Below are positions 39,755-60,187 of a DNA stretch of 64,000 nt, one piece after another. This stretch comes from Promethearchaeota archaeon (GTDB lineage: Archaea > Asgardarchaeota > Lokiarchaeia > Sigyniarchaeales > SOKP01), in assembly GCA_048937405.1 (NCBI GenBank), contig JBHLNF010000001.1, forward strand, positions 688,785 to 752,784, read 5' to 3'. A program made the position numbers and the translations under genes. How positions within the stretch are numbered: position 1 is the stretch's first letter; each line of letters opens with the position of its first letter. The notes beneath the pieces were generated by a model, which saw only the letters and a list, made by a program, of their open reading frames with translations, was not told where the DNA came from and ran no database searches.

Positions 39755-39919
39755 ATGGATTTTAATAGAAAAAATGTTCTTGACCAATATATTTCTATAT
39801 TGAGTTTCTTCATTTTAAATGAATTTAATAACAATTTTGTTATTAAATCGAATGATGTGAGAGTTGATTGCTTAAAAAACATTAATTCATACTTGCATCA
39901 TTGGCTACATCATGAATAA
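39755..39919 (+). CDS. Putative His leader peptide (54 aa from ATG 39755; 20 aa if GTG 39857 is used), ending LHHWLHHE*
   Basis: Manual translation; four CAT codons at 39896-39901 and 39908-39913; stop 81 nt upstream of the first his gene. Confidence 0.65.
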   Translation: MDFNRKNVLDQYISILSFFILNEFNNNFVIKSNDVRVDCLKNINSYLHHWLHHE

Positions 39920-40000: not shown

Positions 40001-40909
40001 ATGATAATATTAAAAATTAATATGAAGGATATGGAAACGGTTGGAGGCTTAAAAGAGTTTATAGATGGAGTATTTACAAAACGAAATTGGGATTTGTTTA
40101 TAACTCTTGTTCTTGAAGCTAATAAGGAAAGCCTTATTACACTGATAAAGGATGATATGCTTAAGATGGTTTCTAATAAGGTTAAAATATGGATAAATTC
40201 AGAAAATAATCAAAAAGAATTAATTAATTTAATAACAGAAAAGGGAATGACGATATACAATTCAGAATCTCATAAAAATGATGAGGTTTTAAGTTTGGAT
40301 TCAATAAAAGATTATTCATCAATAGATAATATTTTGTTTAAGATTTTAGATTTTGATAAAGCTAATGGACTGATACCAACAATTGTACAAGACCTTAATG
40401 ACAATGTACTAATGCTTGCATATTCATCAAAAGAGTCCTTGAAGGTTACAATCAAATATAGAAAATCAACTTATTTTAGCAGATCGAGGAATCGCCTATG
40501 GACTAAAGGTGAAGAATCAGGAAATTATCAAATTGTAAAGAGCATTCTTTACGATTGTGATGCGGATACTTTATTATTTAGGGTAAAACAGAAAGGTTTT
40601 GCTTGTCATAAAGGTACTTATTCTTGTTTTCAGGATCGGAAATTTTCTATAGGATATCTCTATGATTTAATAGTTGATAGAATCAAAAATTATAGTGTAA
40701 ATGAATCCTATAGTAAAAGACTTGCTGAGGATAATGAATTATTAATGTCTAAAATTGAGGAAGAGTGTAACGAAGTGATAAATTACACCGATAGGGATAA
40801 CTTAATTTGGGAAATTGCAGATATTGCATATTTTATTCTTGTATTAATGGCTACCAAAAAAATTAAACCTGAAGAAATAATAAATGAATTAAAGAGGAGG
40901 AACAAATGA
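40001..40909 (+). CDS. hisIE: Bifunctional phosphoribosyl-AMP cyclohydrolase / phosphoribosyl-ATP pyrophosphatase with N-terminal extension
   Basis: GLIPTIVQD, SRSRNRLWTKGEESGN, DCDAD, CHKGTYSCF; KIEEE and EIADI. Confidence 0.92.
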   Translation: MIILKINMKDMETVGGLKEFIDGVFTKRNWDLFITLVLEANKESLITLIKDDMLKMVSNKVKIWINSENNQKELINLITEKGMTIYNSESHKNDEVLSLDSIKDYSSIDNILFKILDFDKANGLIPTIVQDLNDNVLMLAYSSKESLKVTIKYRKSTYFSRSRNRLWTKGEESGNYQIVKSILYDCDADTLLFRVKQKGFACHKGTYSCFQDRKFSIGYLYDLIVDRIKNYSVNESYSKRLAEDNELLMSKIEEECNEVINYTDRDNLIWEIADIAYFILVLMATKKIKPEEIINELKRRNK

Positions 40910-52286: not shown

Positions 52287-52625
52287 CTAACCGGGGTAAT
52301 CATTTTTTGATCCCATTAGAGTAGTTGTTTCTTCGATCCATTGAGATAAATCTTTATCAATTCTACAGAATGTAACAATTTTATCTAAATCTCTTAGTCT
52401 ACTAAATGAGCATTCTACCATAACATCCCATCCTCCATAAACAGGAGTAGCATATGTTATGTTCCAATCTTCTTTTGGATCTGTTGATTTTAAGCCCCTG
52501 AGTTTATCAACAACTTTCCATTCAGAACCAATTACTTTTAAGCGAATTAGTATATACCCTCTATAATACAATTTATGTGCATTGTTATTATTTTTGACAA
52601 CTTTATTATTCTTTTTTAGTTTCAT
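52287..52625 (-). CDS. Stand-alone Lrp/AsnC C-terminal (RAM-like) domain protein
   Basis: GYILI...V.GGWDVMV...IEETTTL pattern, no HTH; start overlaps argG stop. Confidence 0.55.
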   Translation of the reverse strand: MKLKKNNKVVKNNNNAHKLYYRGYILIRLKVIGSEWKVVDKLRGLKSTDPKEDWNITYATPVYGGWDVMVECSFSRLRDLDKIVTFCRIDKDLSQWIEETTTLMGSKNDYPG

Positions 52626-53907
52626 ATTTTATTACCTCCTCTATTTGATCTTTATTTGAATATCCTGTTATTGATTTAGCAATATTTCTTACTTGAAAAC
52701 CAATCTCACTTTGTAGTCCCCATATTGGAATGAATCCATAACTCAATTTTTGATTGAACGTACTCTTGGTATCATATGTAGCTAAATTTATATCATAAAG
52801 CCCATAAGGAGATTCTCTTGAAACCACGCTAGCGTTCCCCTTGAAAAGTTTCACTTTTACTTCTCCTGTAACCTTTTCATTTACAACATTAATAAATGCT
52901 TCTAAGGCGTCTCTTAACGGATCCACCCACAATCCTTCATAAATTAATTCTGTCCAACGTTGGTCTACTATCGTTTTAAATGAATTCTCATGTTTAGTAC
53001 AGACAAATTTTTCAAGATCTTTATGTGCCTTAATTAATATTAAAGCTGTTGGAACTTCATATACCTCCCTTGATTTTAATCCAATCGCTCGATCTTCCAT
53101 ATGATTTACTCTTCCAATTCCGTGTTTACAACCAATTTTATGTAATTCTCCAATTAAATCAACACCATTAATCTTTCTACCATTTAAACAGACTGGTATT
53201 CCTTTTTCAAAAGATATTTGGAGATATTTTGGTGTATCAGGCGCAGTTTCGGGTGAAGTTGTCCAAGAGAAACAATCTTCTGGGGGTTCAATTTCTGGGT
53301 TTTCTAAGACATCACATTCTGCACTTCTCCCGAAAAGATTCTCATCAACACTATATTTTTTATATTGTTGTTGAATAGGAATTCCATGGAGTTGAGCATA
53401 TTTAATTTCTTCATCTCTACCCATATTCCATTCTATTAAAGGTTGTAATATTTCAATATTAGGAGCATAAGCTCTCATTGTCACATTAAACCGTATTTGA
53501 TCATTTCCTTTTCCTGTACAACCATGAGCTATTGCCTCAATATTCTCTTGTTGTGCAATGTTTATAGCTTCAATAGCTATCAATGGTCTTCCTACTGCCG
53601 TGCTTAGGGGGTAAACTCCTTGATACAAACCGTTTGCTTTAATGGTAGGAAATAAATAATTATTTACAAACTTCTCTTTTAAATCTACGGTGTAGTGCTT
53701 AATCACCCCTAAATTATATGCCTTTTCCTCAATTTCCTTAAATCTGGATGGATCTGCGAATTCCTGACCGAGATCTGCTGTAAAAGTATAAATTTCAGAA
53801 CTATATTTATCTTGTAACCATTTTATCATGCAAGAAGTATCCAGACCACCAGAATACATCAATAAAATTTTATTATATTTATTTTTTTTAGGTCCTAACT
53901 GATTCAT
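52606..53907 (-). CDS. argG: Argininosuccinate synthase
   Basis: YSGGLDTS, HGCTGKGNDQIRF, SVDENLFG, KSREVYE. Confidence 0.96.
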   Translation of the reverse strand: MNQLGPKKNKYNKILLMYSGGLDTSCMIKWLQDKYSSEIYTFTADLGQEFADPSRFKEIEEKAYNLGVIKHYTVDLKEKFVNNYLFPTIKANGLYQGVYPLSTAVGRPLIAIEAINIAQQENIEAIAHGCTGKGNDQIRFNVTMRAYAPNIEILQPLIEWNMGRDEEIKYAQLHGIPIQQQYKKYSVDENLFGRSAECDVLENPEIEPPEDCFSWTTSPETAPDTPKYLQISFEKGIPVCLNGRKINGVDLIGELHKIGCKHGIGRVNHMEDRAIGLKSREVYEVPTALILIKAHKDLEKFVCTKHENSFKTIVDQRWTELIYEGLWVDPLRDALEAFINVVNEKVTGEVKVKLFKGNASVVSRESPYGLYDINLATYDTKSTFNQKLSYGFIPIWGLQSEIGFQVRNIAKSITGYSNKDQIEEVIKYETKKE

Positions 53908-53955
53908 TAATCACTCACTTTCTTTTATTAATATCTATTATTTTATTATAATTTT

Positions 53956-55002
53956 TTATATAGGGAACATAGGAATTGATTTTAAACCTATATTCTCTTT
54001 TAAATTAAACATTAAATTCATATTTTGAACAGCTTGTCCTGCTCCACCCTTGACTAGATTATCAATTGCTCCAATTATAATTATTCTATTAGCTTTTTCA
54101 TCTAAACAAAATCCAATATCGCAATAATTTGATCCTTTAACCCATTTCGTTTCAGGGAATTCGTTTTTACCCATTAACCGAATAAAAAATTCATTACTAT
54201 AATTTTTTTCATATATTTTTTTGATATCTTCATAATTATATGACTTTTTGAGAATTCCATAGCAGGTACATAATATTCCTCTATTCATAGGGAGGAGATG
54301 CGGAGTAAAAATTACTGAAATTTCATTTCCTTTTAATTCACCTAATTCTTGTTCGATTTCTGGAGTATGTCGGTGAGATAATACTTTATATGCCTTAGTT
54401 GATTCATTACATTCTGAAAAATGGGTTCCAAGATTTAAAGATCTTCCAGCTCCTGATACTCCTGATTTTGCATCAATAATTATATTCCTTTCGTCCAAAA
54501 TCCCTTCTTTTATAAGAGGTAATAAACATAATAACGCACAAGTAGGATAGCAACCAGGATTAGCTACTAATTTTGAACTCTTTATTTGGTCTCTTTTCCA
54601 TTCTGAAAGACCGTAGACGGCTTTATTCAACAGACTAGCATTATTATGTTTAATACTATACCATAACTCGTATTCATCTACATTCTTTAATCGAAAATCT
54701 GCACTTAGATCAATAACTTTTACATTTTTTAAAATATCATCTGTTAATATCTCTGAAGTAACTCCATGAGGTAATGATAGAAATATGATATCAAGTTGGT
54801 TTATTGCAGAATTAAGATCATCCTCATCACAGATCATCTCACATATTTTATTGAAGTTTGAATAAACAGAATTATAACTTTGATTTTTATGATTTTTAGA
54901 TGTTAATAATTTTAATTCTACTTCAGGATGATTATATAAAATTCTGACTAATTCTGATCCTATATATCCAGTTGCTCCTATTATACCCGCTCTAATCATC
55001 AT
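53956..55002 (-). CDS. argC: N-acetyl-gamma-glutamyl-phosphate reductase
   Basis: GATGYIG, DLSADFR, ANPGCYPT, SGVSGAGR, HRHTPEI, DNLVKGGAGQAVQN. Confidence 0.96.
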   Translation of the reverse strand: MMIRAGIIGATGYIGSELVRILYNHPEVELKLLTSKNHKNQSYNSVYSNFNKICEMICDEDDLNSAINQLDIIFLSLPHGVTSEILTDDILKNVKVIDLSADFRLKNVDEYELWYSIKHNNASLLNKAVYGLSEWKRDQIKSSKLVANPGCYPTCALLCLLPLIKEGILDERNIIIDAKSGVSGAGRSLNLGTHFSECNESTKAYKVLSHRHTPEIEQELGELKGNEISVIFTPHLLPMNRGILCTCYGILKKSYNYEDIKKIYEKNYSNEFFIRLMGKNEFPETKWVKGSNYCDIGFCLDEKANRIIIIGAIDNLVKGGAGQAVQNMNLMFNLKENIGLKSIPMFPI

Positions 55003-56204
55003 TATAAGCCTTTATTATTTTTATTCTGTTGTAAAACATCATCAAGGATAGATATTCCTTCATCAATTTCATTTTTGCTAATAATCAGTGGTGGAACAAA
55101 TCTTATTACATTTTCTCCAGCACCTAATATAAGTAAACCTTGTTCCATAGATTTTTCTACTATATCCTTAACAGGAGTATTTAGTTCCAAACCAAGTATC
55201 AAACCATAACCTCTAACATCCTTAATCATAGCATATTTTTCCTTTAAAGTTGCTAGTTTCTCTTTTAGATATTCCCCTTGTTTTCGTACATTTTCAAGGA
55301 TTCCACCGTTTAACAATTTATTCAGTACTACTTTACCTGCTGTACATGCTAAATGATTACCTCCAAACGTTGATGCATGATCACCTGGTTGAAAAGCATC
55401 TGCTTTACTTTGAATTGCCAACATTGCTCCTATGGGAATACCTCCACCTAAACCTTTTGCTAATGAAACTACATCAGGTTTTACATCAAATATTTGATAT
55501 GCAAATAATTCACCAGTTCTTCCAATGCCACATTGAACTTCATCAAATACAAGTACAATATCTTTTTCATCACACAGAGCTCTTACTTTTTTTAAGTAAG
55601 ATTTCTCAGCAGGATGAATTCCTCCTTCACCTTGTATAGGCTCTATTATTATAGCACATGTGTCTTCATTAACTGCTCCTTTTAACTCATTAAAGTTATT
55701 TAATTCAACATAGGAAAATCCAGGCATTAGTGGATCAAATCCTTTTTGATATTTAGTCTGACCTGTAGCAGTGACAGTGGCCATTGTTCTTCCGTGAAAC
55801 GATCTCTTCATTGTGATAATTTTATGACAATTATCTCCATGGACTTTCTTTCCATATTTTTTACATAATTTTATTGCGGCTTCTACCGCCTCAGCTCCAC
55901 TATTACAATAAAAAATTTTATCGAAACAGCTATTTTTAATTAAAATCTCTCCTAACTCAATTGAGGGCATCATCCAGTACAAATTTGAACAATGTTGCAT
56001 TTTTTTTAATTGTGCAATAATTTCTTGGATATAATCAGGATCATTATAGCCTAAAGCATTTACAGCTATCCCAGCAACAAAATCTACATACTTTTTTCCA
56101 TCACTATCCCAGAGATAGATTCCATTTCCTTTTTCTAATACAATGGGAAACTGTTTATAAGTATTCATTATAACCTTAGTTCCCCTTTCAATCCAATCAC
56201 TCAT
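55002..56204 (-). CDS. argD: Acetylornithine aminotransferase
   Basis: NSGAEA, SFHGRT, EPIQGEGG, FDEVQCG, AKGLGGG; start set at ATG 56204 behind GAGAGGA. Confidence 0.93.
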   Translation of the reverse strand: MSDWIERGTKVIMNTYKQFPIVLEKGNGIYLWDSDGKKYVDFVAGIAVNALGYNDPDYIQEIIAQLKKMQHCSNLYWMMPSIELGEILIKNSCFDKIFYCNSGAEAVEAAIKLCKKYGKKVHGDNCHKIITMKRSFHGRTMATVTATGQTKYQKGFDPLMPGFSYVELNNFNELKGAVNEDTCAIIIEPIQGEGGIHPAEKSYLKKVRALCDEKDIVLVFDEVQCGIGRTGELFAYQIFDVKPDVVSLAKGLGGGIPIGAMLAIQSKADAFQPGDHASTFGGNHLACTAGKVVLNKLLNGGILENVRKQGEYLKEKLATLKEKYAMIKDVRGYGLILGLELNTPVKDIVEKSMEQGLLILGAGENVIRFVPPLIISKNEIDEGISILDDVLQQNKNNKGL

Positions 56205-56247
56205 AATTAAATTCCTCTCTTTCATTTTTATATTTTTTTTTATAATA

Positions 56248-57108
56248 TTACTTTTTAAACATTGTACCAATCCCTTGAGGGGTAAAAATTTCAAGTAAAA
56301 GACTATGTTCAATTCTTCCATCAATAATATGAACTGCTTTTACATCATTATTTATTGCTTCTATACAACTTCTTACTTTTGGAATCATCCCTTCTGTAAT
56401 TTTACCTTCTCTAATATAAGATAAAGCTTGTTCAGTCTTCAATTCTGATATTAGTGAATTGTTATCATTTACATCTAGAAGTACTCCTAAAACGTCAGTT
56501 ATATAGATTAACTTTTCTACATTTAATGCTTTTGAAATAGCTAGTGCTACTTCATCAGCATTAATATTATATGTATTTCCTAAATTATCTGAGCCTATTG
56601 GTGCAATAACTGGAATTAAAGCATTTTTAAGTATCCCTTTCAAAAATTGAGTATTCACTTCAGTAACCTCTCCAACAAAACCTAAATCTTCTCCGTCAAC
56701 CATTTTTTTCTTTACTTTCAATAAATTACTATCTTTCCCACTCAGTCCTAATGCATTACTTCCTTGAGTCTGAATATCATTTACAATTCCTTTATTTATT
56801 TTTCCAGCTAATACCATTTCGACAACATCCATTGTTTCTTCATCAGTAATTCTAAGTCCATTAAAAAATTTTGACTCGATCTTTAATTTTCTTAATAAAA
56901 TATTAATTGAAGCTCCGCCCCCATGCACAACTATTATATTAATTCCTACGAAATCGAGGAAAACAAGATCTTCAATAAAACCCTTTTTAAGCTCAGGTTT
57001 TACCATTGCGCTACCACCATATTTTATAACAAAAGTTTTTCCATAAAATGCTCTAATGTATTTTATTGCTTCTATCAAAATTCTTGCTTTTCCAATATTT
57101 TCAATCAT
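56248..57108 (-). CDS. argB: Acetylglutamate kinase
   Basis: VIKYGG, VHGGG, GLRITD, NINAD, GMIPKV; probable start ATG 57108 behind AGGTGG. Confidence 0.93.
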   Translation of the reverse strand: MIENIGKARILIEAIKYIRAFYGKTFVIKYGGSAMVKPELKKGFIEDLVFLDFVGINIIVVHGGGASINILLRKLKIESKFFNGLRITDEETMDVVEMVLAGKINKGIVNDIQTQGSNALGLSGKDSNLLKVKKKMVDGEDLGFVGEVTEVNTQFLKGILKNALIPVIAPIGSDNLGNTYNINADEVALAISKALNVEKLIYITDVLGVLLDVNDNNSLISELKTEQALSYIREGKITEGMIPKVRSCIEAINNDVKAVHIIDGRIEHSLLLEIFTPQGIGTMFKK

Positions 57109-57121
57109 TTTTTCCACCTTT

Positions 57122-58363
57122 TCAGGTTCTATAAGATCCATTAATTCGAACATAATCATAACTTAAATCACATCCCCATGCGATTGCTTCACTTTCTCCA
57201 TCCTTTAAAAGCAATTCTACAATAATTTCATTTTCTTTTAATATTTTTAGTGCTAAATCTTCATCAAATTGTAAAGCACTTCCATCTTTCATAACCTCGA
57301 TTGAATTAACATCATTCAAAAATTTTATTGATACTTTTAATGGATCAAATTTTGCTCCAGAGTAGCCCATTGCAGCAATAATCCTACCCCAATTTGCGTC
57401 TTCTCCAAAAAAGGCTGTCTTTACTAAATTTGAGGTTATTACGGATTTACTTAAGATTTTTGCATCTTGTTTTGATGCAGCTCCTTTGACGTGAACTGCA
57501 ATAAATTTGCTAGCTCCTTCTCCATCTCTTACAATCTCTTGAGCTAAATATAAATTTACATAGTGAAGTGCGTTTTTAAAAATAAAATATTCTTCACTTT
57601 CATCAAAAATTTCTGAGTTATTACCCATTCCATTAGCCAAAAGAATTACTGAATCACTGGTACTTGTATCACCATCTACAGAGATCATATTATATGATTC
57701 TTCAATACTTTCTCTAAACGCTTTTTCTAATAATTCTTTTGAAATATTAATATCAGTTGAAATAAATGAAAGCATAGTAGCCATATTTGGATGAATCATT
57801 CCAGAACCCTTCGCCATCCCTCCTATTCTAATTTTCTTATTATCAATAATAAATTCAACCGAGATCTCTTTAGGATGTGTATCTGTCGTCATAACTGCTT
57901 CAGCAGCTAATCTTGCATCTTTATCTCTACTCCCTATGTTTTTATACGTATTTTTAATACCCTCAATTATAATTTCAATTGGAAGAGGCTTTCCAATAAC
58001 TCCTGTAGAAGCAACAATTACTTGATTTTTCTTTATTCCTAAACAAGAGGCTAACTCAGCTGCCATCATTTCATTATGTTTAATTCCCATTTCTCCTGTA
58101 CAAACATTCGCATTTCCACTATTAACGACTATGCCTTGTATCAAATTGTGATTTTGAATAAGATTTTGATTCCATAATACAGAAGGAGCTTTTACAATAT
58201 TTGTAGTAAAAACCCCTACTGCTTTAGCCGGAACTTCACTATATACTATAGCTAGGTCTTTCTTGCATTCTTTAATCCCTATATGGCAACCAGTAGCATG
58301 AAATCCTTTTGGACTTGTAATTCCTCCTTTTAATTTTGTTATATCAATATTTTTTTTTTCCAT
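57122..58363 (-). CDS. argJ: Ornithine acetyltransferase / N-acetylglutamate synthase
   Basis: NSGNAN, STGVIG, MTTDT, KGSGMIHPNMATML, DGDTST, DGEGA, NWGR. Confidence 0.96.
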   Translation of the reverse strand: MEKKNIDITKLKGGITSPKGFHATGCHIGIKECKKDLAIVYSEVPAKAVGVFTTNIVKAPSVLWNQNLIQNHNLIQGIVVNSGNANVCTGEMGIKHNEMMAAELASCLGIKKNQVIVASTGVIGKPLPIEIIIEGIKNTYKNIGSRDKDARLAAEAVMTTDTHPKEISVEFIIDNKKIRIGGMAKGSGMIHPNMATMLSFISTDINISKELLEKAFRESIEESYNMISVDGDTSTSDSVILLANGMGNNSEIFDESEEYFIFKNALHYVNLYLAQEIVRDGEGASKFIAVHVKGAASKQDAKILSKSVITSNLVKTAFFGEDANWGRIIAAMGYSGAKFDPLKVSIKFLNDVNSIEVMKDGSALQFDEDLALKILKENEIIVELLLKDGESEAIAWGCDLSYDYVRINGSYRT

Positions 58364-58440
58364 ATCTTAAAACATACCTTTTATTTCCATTTCTTGAACC
58401 TATTAAAATTTATATCTTGATTATTTTGTTTGAAAAATTA

Positions 58441-58494
58441 ATAAAAATAAAAAATTAGAAGAAGTGGAGAAAGAAGAATGACACTTCATTTCTT
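58441..58494 (-). promoter_or_regulatory. Alternative hairpins plus U/C-rich tract between the Arg leader and argJ (candidate attenuator)
   Basis: mRNA AAGAAAUGA-AGUG-UCAUUCUU hairpin competes with GAAGUG/CACUUC pairing; followed by UUCUUCUAAUUUUUUAUUUUU. Confidence 0.45.
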
Positions 58495-58509
58495 ACTTTT
58501 ATTAATAAA

Positions 58510-58584
58510 TTAAAGACGGCGACGTGCCGAGTATAGATTGCGTAGTGCTTTTTGAAATTGTTTTCCTACAATTTCGTTATTCAT
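58510..58584 (-). CDS. Putative Arg leader peptide MNNEIVGKQFQKALRNLYSARRRL*
   Basis: Manual translation; terminal CGT CGC CGT run plus one CGC; co-oriented with argJ and ending 146 nt upstream of it. Confidence 0.75.
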   Translation of the reverse strand: MNNEIVGKQFQKALRNLYSARRRL

Positions 58585-58702
58585 ATAAGAATCAAATAAA
58601 ATCATACTTCAAACACCAACACAATATTAACAATAATTTAAAATAGGAACCTAACTATAAAAATTTACCGTTTCTTCTTGATTATTTTTCAATAATCTGT
58701 TT

Positions 58703-60187
58703 TTATGAGATTAATTTCTCAATAAGTTCGTCTCTTTGAAGTTCAGCGTTTCTTATTTTTTCTATTCTGTTTAAAAACGATGTGTACAATGAATCTTTTC
58801 TTGTACTTAAATTATTAATATTAAGTTTGATCTCTTTTCCAGATGGAGAACCTTGACTAATTCTTCTTTCTAAACAAAGATCTAAATTCTTTAATGTTTG
58901 AATTATTTTATCTGATATATTTACTTCCTTCTTTATCACATCAAAAATCGATTTCTCAATTTTTTCTCTATTTAGCATATCTTCTGGCTTTTCTATATTA
59001 TTTACTAAACGAGCAACAACTTCATGTGATTGTCTAAAAGGAATTTTATAATCTTGTACTAACAGTTCTGCTAAATCCAATGCTAGAATATAACTCTCAC
59101 CAATAGCACTTCTCATTTTCTCTTTATTAATCGATATTGTTGAAAATATACCTTTAAACATAGTAATTACGGAAAGTATCGTATTAATCGAACTTATTAA
59201 TTTTTTCTTTATATCCTGAAAATCCATAAAATAGCCTGTTGGAATTGCTTTAATAATCATTGCTGCATTAAACAGGTTTGAAACAACTTTTGTACTTCTA
59301 CTTCTTATTAATTCTACAGTATCTGGATTTTTTTTTTGCGGCATAACACTTGAAACAGAACAATATTCATCTGCTAATTCTATAAAGTTAAATTCTTTAG
59401 TTGCCCATATTATTAAATCTTCGGCAATTCTCGAAAATTGAATAGCCAGTAAAGATAGTCCCATTAATGTTTCATAAAGATAATCTTTTGAACTAATCGC
59501 ATCAATAGAATTATAAATTATTCCATCAAAACCTAATAATTCTGCCGTTCTTTCTCTATTAATATTAATACTTGTTCCACCTATAGCACATGCTCCTAAG
59601 GGATTTTTATTAATTCTATTATAAATCTCTTCTAATCTTTCTAGAGATCTTAAAATTTGTGCAATGTAATTATTTATATAATGAGAAAAAGTCCCTAATT
59701 GACCTCTCTGTAAATGAGTATATAATGGCATATATGAATTTATGTTATTTTTAGAAATATTTAGCAAAATATCAACAAGAGCGAATAATTCTTCGGAAAT
59801 CTTGTTTAATTCTTTCCTGATTTTTAATCTTAAATCAAGTGATACTTGATCATTTCTAGATCTGCCAGTATGAATTTTACCCCCTATTTCAATCCCAATT
59901 GCATCTATAACACTTTTTTCTATAAATGGATGTATATCTTCAAAACTCTCATCAATTTCAATCTGATTATTCTTTAACTTTTTCATTATATCTTCAAGGA
60001 CAATTAAGATTTTCCTTATTTCACTTTCGTCAAGGATTTTTTGTTCAAATAGCATAATAGTATGAACTTGAGTACCAATAATATCTTCTTCAGCAATCCA
60101 AAAGTCTTCCTTTAAAGATGAGATAAACTTAAGTGCATTGTCGTTAAGAGGGATATCCAATCCTGTCCTATATAAATTTTTTCTCAT
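58703..60187 (-). CDS. argH: Argininosuccinate lyase
   Basis: EDIH, HTGRSRNDQ, YTHLQ, SSVMPQKKNPD, PFRQSH. Confidence 0.95.
   Translation of the reverse strand: MRKNLYRTGLDIPLNDNALKFISSLKEDFWIAEEDIIGTQVHTIMLFEQKILDESEIRKILIVLEDIMKKLKNNQIEIDESFEDIHPFIEKSVIDAIGIEIGGKIHTGRSRNDQVSLDLRLKIRKELNKISEELFALVDILLNISKNNINSYMPLYTHLQRGQLGTFSHYINNYIAQILRSLERLEEIYNRINKNPLGACAIGGTSININRERTAELLGFDGIIYNSIDAISSKDYLYETLMGLSLLAIQFSRIAEDLIIWATKEFNFIELADEYCSVSSVMPQKKNPDTVELIRSRSTKVVSNLFNAAMIIKAIPTGYFMDFQDIKKKLISSINTILSVITMFKGIFSTISINKEKMRSAIGESYILALDLAELLVQDYKIPFRQSHEVVARLVNNIEKPEDMLNREKIEKSIFDVIKKEVNISDKIIQTLKNLDLCLERRISQGSPSGKEIKLNINNLSTRKDSLYTSFLNRIEKIRNAELQRDELIEKLIS

Follow-up and report, generated by a model that had tools for sequence, protein, structure and literature searches.

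What is the function of a short open reading frame (ORF) that ends in rare arginine codons and lies directly before an archaeal arginine biosynthesis operon? The question is raised by the spacer between argH and argJ in a genome of a Promethearchaeota archaeon (assembly GCA_048937405.1, here G000; 4.47 Mb, 28.9% GC). The window, meaning the whole stretch of DNA that was analyzed, comprises 64,000 nucleotides (nt) and corresponds to positions 688785 to 752784 of contig JBHLNF010000001.1 (C7:688785-752784). An earlier note, made from the sequence of the window alone, had proposed that this spacer contains an unannotated arginine leader peptide. Our comparative analysis makes it fairly likely that the ORF encodes the leader peptide through which a ribosome-mediated attenuator adjusts the argJBDCG operon to arginine: the ORF lies on the operon strand, follows a predicted ribosome-binding site, has clustered cognate codons, and is conserved.

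The leader ORF and its arginine codons

The argH/argJ spacer is 339 nt long and contains the leader ORF on the minus strand, as is the case for all features of the arginine locus described below. Read from the internal ATG on which the earlier note had relied, the ORF has 24 codons (MNNEIVGKQFQKALRNLYSARRRL*; positions 58584..58510). All four of its arginine codons are CGY (Y, pyrimidine), as had been stated: a CGC at positions 58540-58542 and the tandem run CGT CGC CGT at positions 58516..58524, which occupies codons -4 to -2 relative to the stop. The peptide ends in SARRRL*, and four of its last 10 codons, three of them in tandem, encode arginine. The frame and the stop of the 24-codon version stood, but its start is probably not the true one. 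An in-frame ATG is located at position 58605, 7 codons upstream of the internal one, and because it follows a GGTG motif by 8 nt and its position matches that of the start codon conserved in the relatives (TTG or ATG), the true leader probably consists of 31 codons followed by TAA (MILFDSYMNNEIVGKQFQKALRNLYSARRRL*; 58510..58605), with the shorter ORF nested in it.

The impression that the surrounding genes favor AGA, gained by eye, was borne out by codon counts. In 2,082 long ORFs of the genome, arginine is encoded by AGA (54%), CGA (15%), AGG (12%), CGT (12%), CGG (3.3%), and CGC (3.2%), and in the six arg genes AGA accounts for 57 of the 74 arginine codons (77%) and CGY for only two. The arginine run is also the GC-rich spot in an AT-rich spacer that it had been said to be: the intergenic DNA of the genome has a GC content of 21%, and within 674 kb of such DNA only two loci have the motif CGNCGNCGN, one of them being this leader. 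Since a simple base-composition estimate predicts ~1 locus genome-wide, the rarity of the motif is informative only jointly with its position in the arg spacer. The other intergenic site (C7:241654-241662; CGGCGCCGG) is palindromic and lies between an ORF of 96 amino acids and a convergent gene.

At least three CGN arginine codons (N, any nucleotide) within the last 8 codons were found in four of the 6,189 intergenic ORFs starting with ATG, the leader included; among the other three, one is the gene for ribosomal protein L39e, and another is located at the end of a contig. The L39e gene is on the same contig as the leader, and a control search matched L39e in archaea only. Because very many sequence windows were scanned, the case for the reality of the leader rests on conservation and not on codon odds. 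The leader peptides matched no family in Pfam or NCBIfam, and a search of the genome by nhmmer with the leader alignment revealed no second copy. No arginine leader was identified at argF or argS of the genome, and no ORF with an arginine run was apparent upstream of argH, where the region was inspected visually only.

Conservation of the leader in relatives

Relatives of the locus were sought in species genomes, in metagenomes, and in 399 genomes of the phylum. This yielded 16 distinct archaeal loci, with ArgJ 72% to 77% identical, from two genera of one family of Promethearchaeota, a member of the kingdom Promethearchaeati; the latter is the formal name of the Asgard archaea. The order argH-leader-argJ is kept in all 16 loci, and the stop codon of the leader has the same position in 15. 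The earlier note had named loss of the arginine run, or its conservation merely as DNA in other frames, as the outcome that would speak against a leader. What we found is a reading frame kept in all 16 loci, the only one that is open across all 12 sequences tested. Insertions and deletions within the ORF measure 12 nt and 15 nt, with one exception to multiples of 3, namely, one base inserted at the former stop codon of one locus, where the ORF runs three codons past the aligned stop.

Each of the 16 loci has two to eight arginine codons among the last 10 codons of the leader, and position -4 is arginine in all aligned relatives, written CGT, CGG, or CGC. Across the loci, the arginine codons of the terminal cluster are always CGN (16 CGT, 15 CGG, and 11 CGC), and an arginine further upstream is encoded by AGA. 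One of these leader peptides reads LISLDPHLNNEIVSIQFPKAPHNPRPARHRL, and examples of the endings are ...ARLRL, ...ARRRI*, ...SRRGF*, ...RRSRRRRL*, ...SARRRR*, ...ARRRRLLIY*, and ...PRRSFF*; ARHRL is also seen. Beyond the arginine codons, the peptide is fairly conserved (NNEIV.IQF.KAP.N...AR.RL).

The substitution pattern fits that of a coding sequence. Variability at codon positions 1, 2, and 3 is 0.20, 0.14, and 0.24, respectively (3 > 1 > 2), and the ratio of nonsynonymous to synonymous substitution rates (dN/dS) is ~0.5 in frame, compared to 0.63 and 0.94 out of frame. In comparisons of this genome with its relatives, dS reaches 0.9 to 1.5 in argJ, which is near saturation, and 0.42 in the leader. 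The segment from the Shine-Dalgarno (SD)-like site through the T-tract (both described below) is 71% to 79% identical, compared to 37% to 44% for the neighboring spacer. Because the core of the spacer stays this similar despite the high dS of argJ, the comparison indicates that purifying selection acts on the leader region, on its coding sequence and probably on its RNA, too.

No leader was found in G035, an order-level relative (argJ, 62% identical) whose spacer is 563 nt long and contains an unrelated short ORF. That ORF was rejected as a conserved arginine leader, one of its arginine codons being a tryptophan codon in a near-identical metagenome copy. The gene order is different in G026, another relative without the leader. 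Arginine and histidine biosynthesis are patchily distributed in the genus: none of the 24 congeners first drawn yielded argJ, and a full-length hisIE was recovered from only a few congeners.

RNA elements, proposed mechanism, and alternatives

A block resembling a transcription factor B recognition element and TATA box (cggtaaatttttatag; 58655..58670) aligns with a near-invariant CGTTTAATTTATATAG in the relatives. It is situated ~45 to 50 nt before the leader start, and its all-pair identity is 0.77, compared to 0.47 in the DNA upstream. The leader is located between this block and argJ, in agreement with the TATA-like box described in the earlier note, and we infer that the block serves as the leader promoter. 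A positional k-mer search for a promoter consensus in the genome gave no sharp signal. Closer to the leader is the SD-like GGTG (58614..58617), which is invariant in 12 of 12 sequences and precedes the start codon (ATG here, TTG in most relatives) by 8 to 9 nt. In this genome, GGTG is strongly enriched at positions -9 to -14 of gene starts, and the GGTG of the leader is at the preferred distance.

Two helices involve the ORF itself. In helix H1, GUUGGUG (58614-58620), which includes the SD-like site, can pair with AAGCACC inside the ORF (58541-58550), where GCACC belongs to codons 20 and 21; the helix comprises 7 base pairs (bp), and across 12 sequences 98% of it is paired. Through H1, translation of the leader may be kept to a single round, by the first cotranscriptional ribosome. 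Hairpin H2 (GAAAUUGU/ACAAUUUC, aligned as GAAAUUGUA/UACAAUUUC; 58554..58575) lies inside the ORF, and 95% of its cells are paired, compared to ~50% in slid controls.

The end of the ORF takes part in a further predicted pairing. According to RNAalifold, the last codon, the stop, and the next 3 nt form a putative antiterminator strand (CUUUAAUUU; 58507..58515). This segment (CUUUAAUUC) can pair with GAAUUGAAG ~20 nt downstream (10 bp, 94% paired), at -6 to -8 kcal/mol in most relatives. The purine-rich GAAUUGAAG doubles as the 5' arm of a hairpin with UCACUUCUUCU. The terminator-like hairpin (AAGAAAUGAAGUG ... CACUUCUUCU; 58457..58494) is 84% paired, compared to 49% to 75% in slid controls, and in the minimum-energy fold it spans from an A-tract to a U-tract. 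It is followed by a T-tract (T6 A T5 A TT AA T5; 58433..58454) that corresponds to the near-invariant TTTATTATTTTTTT of the relatives and is a candidate archaeal termination signal. Genome-wide, runs of six or more T residues are enriched 2- to 3-fold in the first 30 nt past stop codons, which fits a role of oligo-T as a local termination signal. No terminator was called here by a consensus promoter/terminator scan, whose rule admits neither a loop of this length nor a stem this rich in AU.

These elements could operate as follows, in a scheme deduced from sequence throughout, from promoter activity and leader translation to switching and termination at the T-tract. Transcription would start at the TATA-like promoter ~50 nt upstream, and the first cistron of the mRNA would be the 31-codon leader, translated from the GGTG site. 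With plentiful arginyl-tRNA, the ribosome would reach the stop codon and mask the CUUUAAUU(U/C) segment. The purine-rich segment would then be free to pair with the pyrimidine-rich one, and the resulting hairpin, together with oligo-U, would stop RNA synthesis ahead of argJ. Under a shortage of the arginyl-tRNA that reads the rare CGN codons, the ribosome would stall at the first CGN, located 12 nt upstream of the stop, or at a preceding arginine codon. The stop codon segment, left free, would capture the 5' arm of the hairpin, the terminator would fail, and RNA polymerase would enter argJ. Reliance on rare CGN codons alone would make the switch more sensitive to arginine, an effect reported for the rare leucine codons of leuL.

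Several observations weigh against this mechanism. In this genome, the antiterminator pairing reaches only -1.6 kcal/mol, and it is also weak in two relatives. The four helices, 84% to 98% paired compared to ~50% in slid controls, are compatible with the data but unproven, and they show no compensatory changes, the sequences being too similar. A ribosome stalled at the last arginine codons would cover part of the antiterminator, so that only codon -4 or an earlier one fits the model. Of the tandem arginines before the stop on which the earlier note had built, the one at position -4 is conserved, but the strict run of three is not universal: genus g22 has His or Leu at the middle position, and in two loci the arginine codons number only two. 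The general view is that archaeal RNA polymerase needs no hairpin to terminate at oligo-T; hairpin-dependent switching is therefore not assured. Finally, the T-tract ends ~40 nt before argJ in the relatives and could alternatively be the TATA box of argJ.

Of the alternatives, the one that survives best, although we consider it unlikely, is a translated arginine sensor that acts on translation: a stalled or terminating ribosome would remodel the purine-rich and pyrimidine-rich hairpins and thereby expose or hide the ribosome-binding region of argJ, or the leader and argJ would be linked by termination-reinitiation. The hairpin arms indeed resemble SD (GAAGUGA and GAGGAGA) and anti-SD (UCACUUCUUCU) sequences, the histidine leader described below has no U-run past its hairpin, with a second hairpin abutting the hisIE SD sequence, and mycobacterial polycysteine short ORFs provide a bacterial precedent (bioRxiv 10.1101/834739). 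However, the accessibility of the argJ start showed no consistent change with the modeled position of the ribosome across the 12 sequences, and control of translation would leave the near-invariant T7 tract unexplained.

Next comes the possibility, likewise doubtful, that the ORF is no sensor at all and represents a conserved small basic protein, a structured RNA with an incidental ORF, or a decaying attenuator imported from bacteria, with the T-tract being the TATA box of argJ. The T-tract is at a promoter-like distance from argJ, covariation was seen in no helix, synonymous sites are better conserved in the leader than in argJ, and ArgJ is nested among bacterial sequences, some of whose relatives carry arginine leaders (see below). 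Yet a relic would not be expected to keep its frame, stop, SD-like site, and CGN arginine codons across two genera at an argJ dS of ~1. Matches to Rfam and to protein families are absent, which speaks against an RNA or a protein of a known kind, and the genome-wide set of cognate leaders argues for a function.

Improbable in our view is direct sensing of free arginine by the nascent peptide, by analogy with the fungal arginine attenuator peptide or TnaC; arrest at the stop codon under high arginine would mask the antiterminator segment and allow the terminator to form. The pairing obtained by RNAalifold gives such a peptide the correct regulatory logic, and both the fairly conserved peptide outside the arginine codons and the dN/dS of ~0.5 would be consistent with it. 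On the other hand, 6 of the last 13 residues deviate here from the consensus of the relatives, and the C-terminal third varies. A good part of the conservation coincides with H1 and H2, and the dS of the leader is lower than that of argJ, which points to constraint at the RNA level. The number of arginine codons expands and contracts (two to eight), as expected for sensing through hungry codons, and the sister leaders consist of simple cognate runs. That the ORF arose by chance in the AT-rich spacer is very improbable, since even with ~250,000 windows scanned, where coincidences at the level of 1e-3 to 1e-4 are expected, this explanation is effectively refuted by conservation in 16 loci with mostly frame-preserving indels and synonymous changes of the arginine codons.

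If ribosome-mediated attenuation applies, the genes placed under the control of the leader form an operon at positions 52606..58363. The arg genes were assigned with NCBIfam equivalogs, each above the curated cutoff. The operon begins with argJ (57122-58363) and continues with argB (56248-57159), argD (55002-56324), argC (53956-55002), and argG (52606-53907); argH (58703-60187) is directly upstream of the leader. A further ORF of 7 codons, MEIKGMF* (58367..58390), falls in an alignment gap unique to this genome and is a 26-nt duplication of the ancestral argJ start, with a stop 3 nt before the present argJ ATG; termination-reinitiation coupling with argJ is possible there. Only chance matches were obtained with Rfam 15 (E <= 10) between positions 57000 and 60500, and no structured-RNA family was detected in the argH/argJ spacer. 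No tRNA genes were found in the window. ARAGORN identified merely 7 to 14 tRNA genes in this genome, which is rated 100% complete; most of its tRNA genes probably carry unusual introns or are split.

Sister leaders, origin of the operon, and known systems

The earlier note had suspected a general leader system from the arginine and histidine leaders, and an unbiased scan of the genome supports this. All intergenic ORFs starting with ATG and located <=400 nt upstream of a same-strand gene were ranked by the enrichment of any single amino acid in the last 8 codons. The top match was a poly-Asp tail, and five of the next nine were cognate leaders: a tryptophan leader (WQWPWRWR*) before trpB2 (C7:23743-23793, minus strand), a leucine leader (LLLLLLL*) before leuA (C7:562232-562333, minus strand), an isoleucine leader (IIIIGIII*) before the citramalate synthase gene cimA (C20:77277-77348, plus strand), a second tryptophan leader (RWHWFWRA*) before trpD (C11:2400-2453, minus strand), and the 54-codon histidine leader (...YLHHWLHHE*) before hisIE-hisG (positions 39755-39919 of the window, plus strand; hisIE at 40001). 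Five cognate leaders in the top ten are far beyond chance (rough probability, < 1e-10, with few genes per pathway among ~3,600).

In each sister leader, the cognate codons extend to a distance of 0 to 2 codons from the stop, with a hairpin that starts at the stop or shortly after it. Both tryptophan leaders have a GC hairpin with the stop codon in its loop. The histidine leader is followed, from 3 nt past its stop, by a perfect hairpin of 11 to 12 bp, and a second hairpin abuts the GGGGGAU SD sequence of hisIE; the ORF, its histidine codons, and both hairpins are kept in the congeners G018 and G001. A leucine leader with four to seven terminal leucines is present 87 to 98 nt before leuA in all 16 loci of the family, and its peptides diverge widely outside the terminal leucine run. 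Past the stop of the leucine leader, an outer helix appears by eye to covary (CCCU/AGGG, CCUUCUU/AAGAAGG, and CCUCUUC/GGGGAGG), and RNAalifold returned no structure for a quick alignment of these leaders.

The arginine operon itself may have a bacterial past. Outside the archaeal loci, the closest ArgJ sequences come from bacteria. In a phylogeny of 156 sequences sampled by similarity (FastTree, with midpoint rooting only), the archaeal ArgJ proteins form a clade (support, 99; 97 with G035 added), and together with G035 they fall inside a Melainabacteria-like clade (support, 93) that itself lies within Clostridia. Because the archaeal clade is nested among bacterial sequences, the tree suggests that archaeal argJ was acquired by horizontal transfer from bacteria, the direction being read from this nesting. 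ORFs with arginine codons precede argJ in seven bacterial loci of the surrounding clade (L036, L037, L038, L087, L127, L128, and L130) and end, for example, in ...SRRNSRRRLLRSGFIWLC or ...NSRRFPRRRMRSGIIWLC. In the four bacterial loci that were folded (L038, L087, L127, and L128), the leader is followed by a GC-rich stem, e.g., AAUCCCCGAG...CUCGGGGAU, and a U-rich tail, and in L127 and L128 a copy of the 3' arm of the terminator is found inside the leader ORF. No leader was found upstream of argJ in the nearest bacterial loci (Gastranaerophilales). The archaeal leader may descend from a bacterial attenuator that arrived with the operon, or it may be convergent.

Short ORFs ending in ...RR[YC]RI* upstream of bacterial argJ (L056, L067, L083, L089, L093, L096, L147, L149, L176, and L180) were rejected as leaders: in the loci checked, they lie inside the upstream gene. 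They are most likely an out-of-frame reading of the conserved C-terminal motif of ArgC, which we take to be GQAVQNMN, and constitute a trap for leader peptide scans. T-box leaders (RF00230, 107 bits) were observed ~1.1 kb upstream of argJ in two Firmicutes loci (L089:1157-1384 and L096:1166-1390), where they probably sit ahead of the gene preceding argJ.

Taken together, the leaders raise a wider proposal, for and against which we see the balance as about even: this Asgard family would use cognate-codon leaders (Arg, His, Leu, Ile, and two for Trp, possibly also Phe and ileS) to regulate biosynthesis by ribosome-controlled termination, with the arginine device imported from Melainabacteria-like bacteria along with its operon and retuned to oligo-T. 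Our full-text literature searches found no report of leader peptide attenuation in archaea, including Asgard archaea, nor of an arginine codon leader, bacteria included. The earlier description of the system as apparently undescribed in Asgard archaea agrees with this, but the arginine device is possibly an import and not an Asgard invention. Attenuation by a leader peptide is a textbook bacterial mechanism and needs a ribosome that closely trails RNA polymerase. If our reading is correct, ribosome-mediated attenuation and regulatory transcription-translation coupling, neither of which we found reported for Archaea, would occur in this domain, and the closest prokaryotic relatives of eukaryotes would regulate genes via coupled transcription and translation. 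It would also offer a handle on archaeal termination, i.e., on whether an RNA hairpin modulates oligo-U termination or the action of FttA. Arginine would join the amino acids sensed through hungry codons, and a cis-regulatory device would have crossed domains alongside a metabolic operon. In practical terms, the leaders provide an annotation rule for unannotated regulatory mini-genes in Asgard genomes.

The enterobacterial leaders trpL, hisL, leuL, thrL, pheL, and ilvL share with the arginine leader a short 5' ORF that has its own ribosome-binding site and precedes a biosynthetic operon, and cognate codons near the end of the ORF; a subsequent hairpin and U-tract and a competing pairing that overlaps the end of the ORF are predicted here as well. 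Rare codons are also used in leuL, for leucine. Unlike the enterobacterial leaders, the present one is found in an Asgard archaeon, whose RNA polymerase and termination machinery are archaeal, and it concerns arginine; its stems are rich in AU, and only one codon separates its cognate codons from the stop. The T-box and ArgR control the same arginine pathway, but the former is a tRNA-binding RNA and the latter a protein repressor, and the archaeal spacer has no Rfam match. The fungal arginine attenuator peptide, encoded by the upstream ORF of CPA1 or arg-2, is likewise the product of an upstream ORF through which arginine controls its own biosynthesis, and Asgard archaea are the sister lineage of eukaryotes. 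The fungal peptide, however, senses free arginine via the nascent chain and blocks scanning ribosomes without having a run of arginine codons, and we know of no sequence similarity between it and the archaeal leader.

The closest published analogue spanning several operons is the mycobacterial cysteine "ribulon," in which several operons that belong to one pathway are each under the control of a leaderless polycysteine short ORF (Canestrari et al., bioRxiv 10.1101/834739); in the Asgard archaeon, several pathways are involved, each with its own cognate ORF. The mycobacterial ORFs act on translation by unmasking a downstream ribosome-binding site (bioRxiv 10.1101/834739), whereas the archaeal ORF is preceded by an SD-like site and followed by a T-tract. 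Most similar in setting are the arginine leaders of the Melainabacteria-like bacteria, which belong to the same ArgJ clade, occupy the same place before argJ, use CGN codons, and have a predicted antiterminator formed between the leader's 3' end and the terminator's 5' arm. Their peptides are not alignable with the archaeal ones (...SRRNSRRRLLRSGFIWLC versus ...PRPARHRL), their arginine cluster is located 8 to 10 codons before the stop, and their terminator is canonical, with a GC-rich stem followed by U8.

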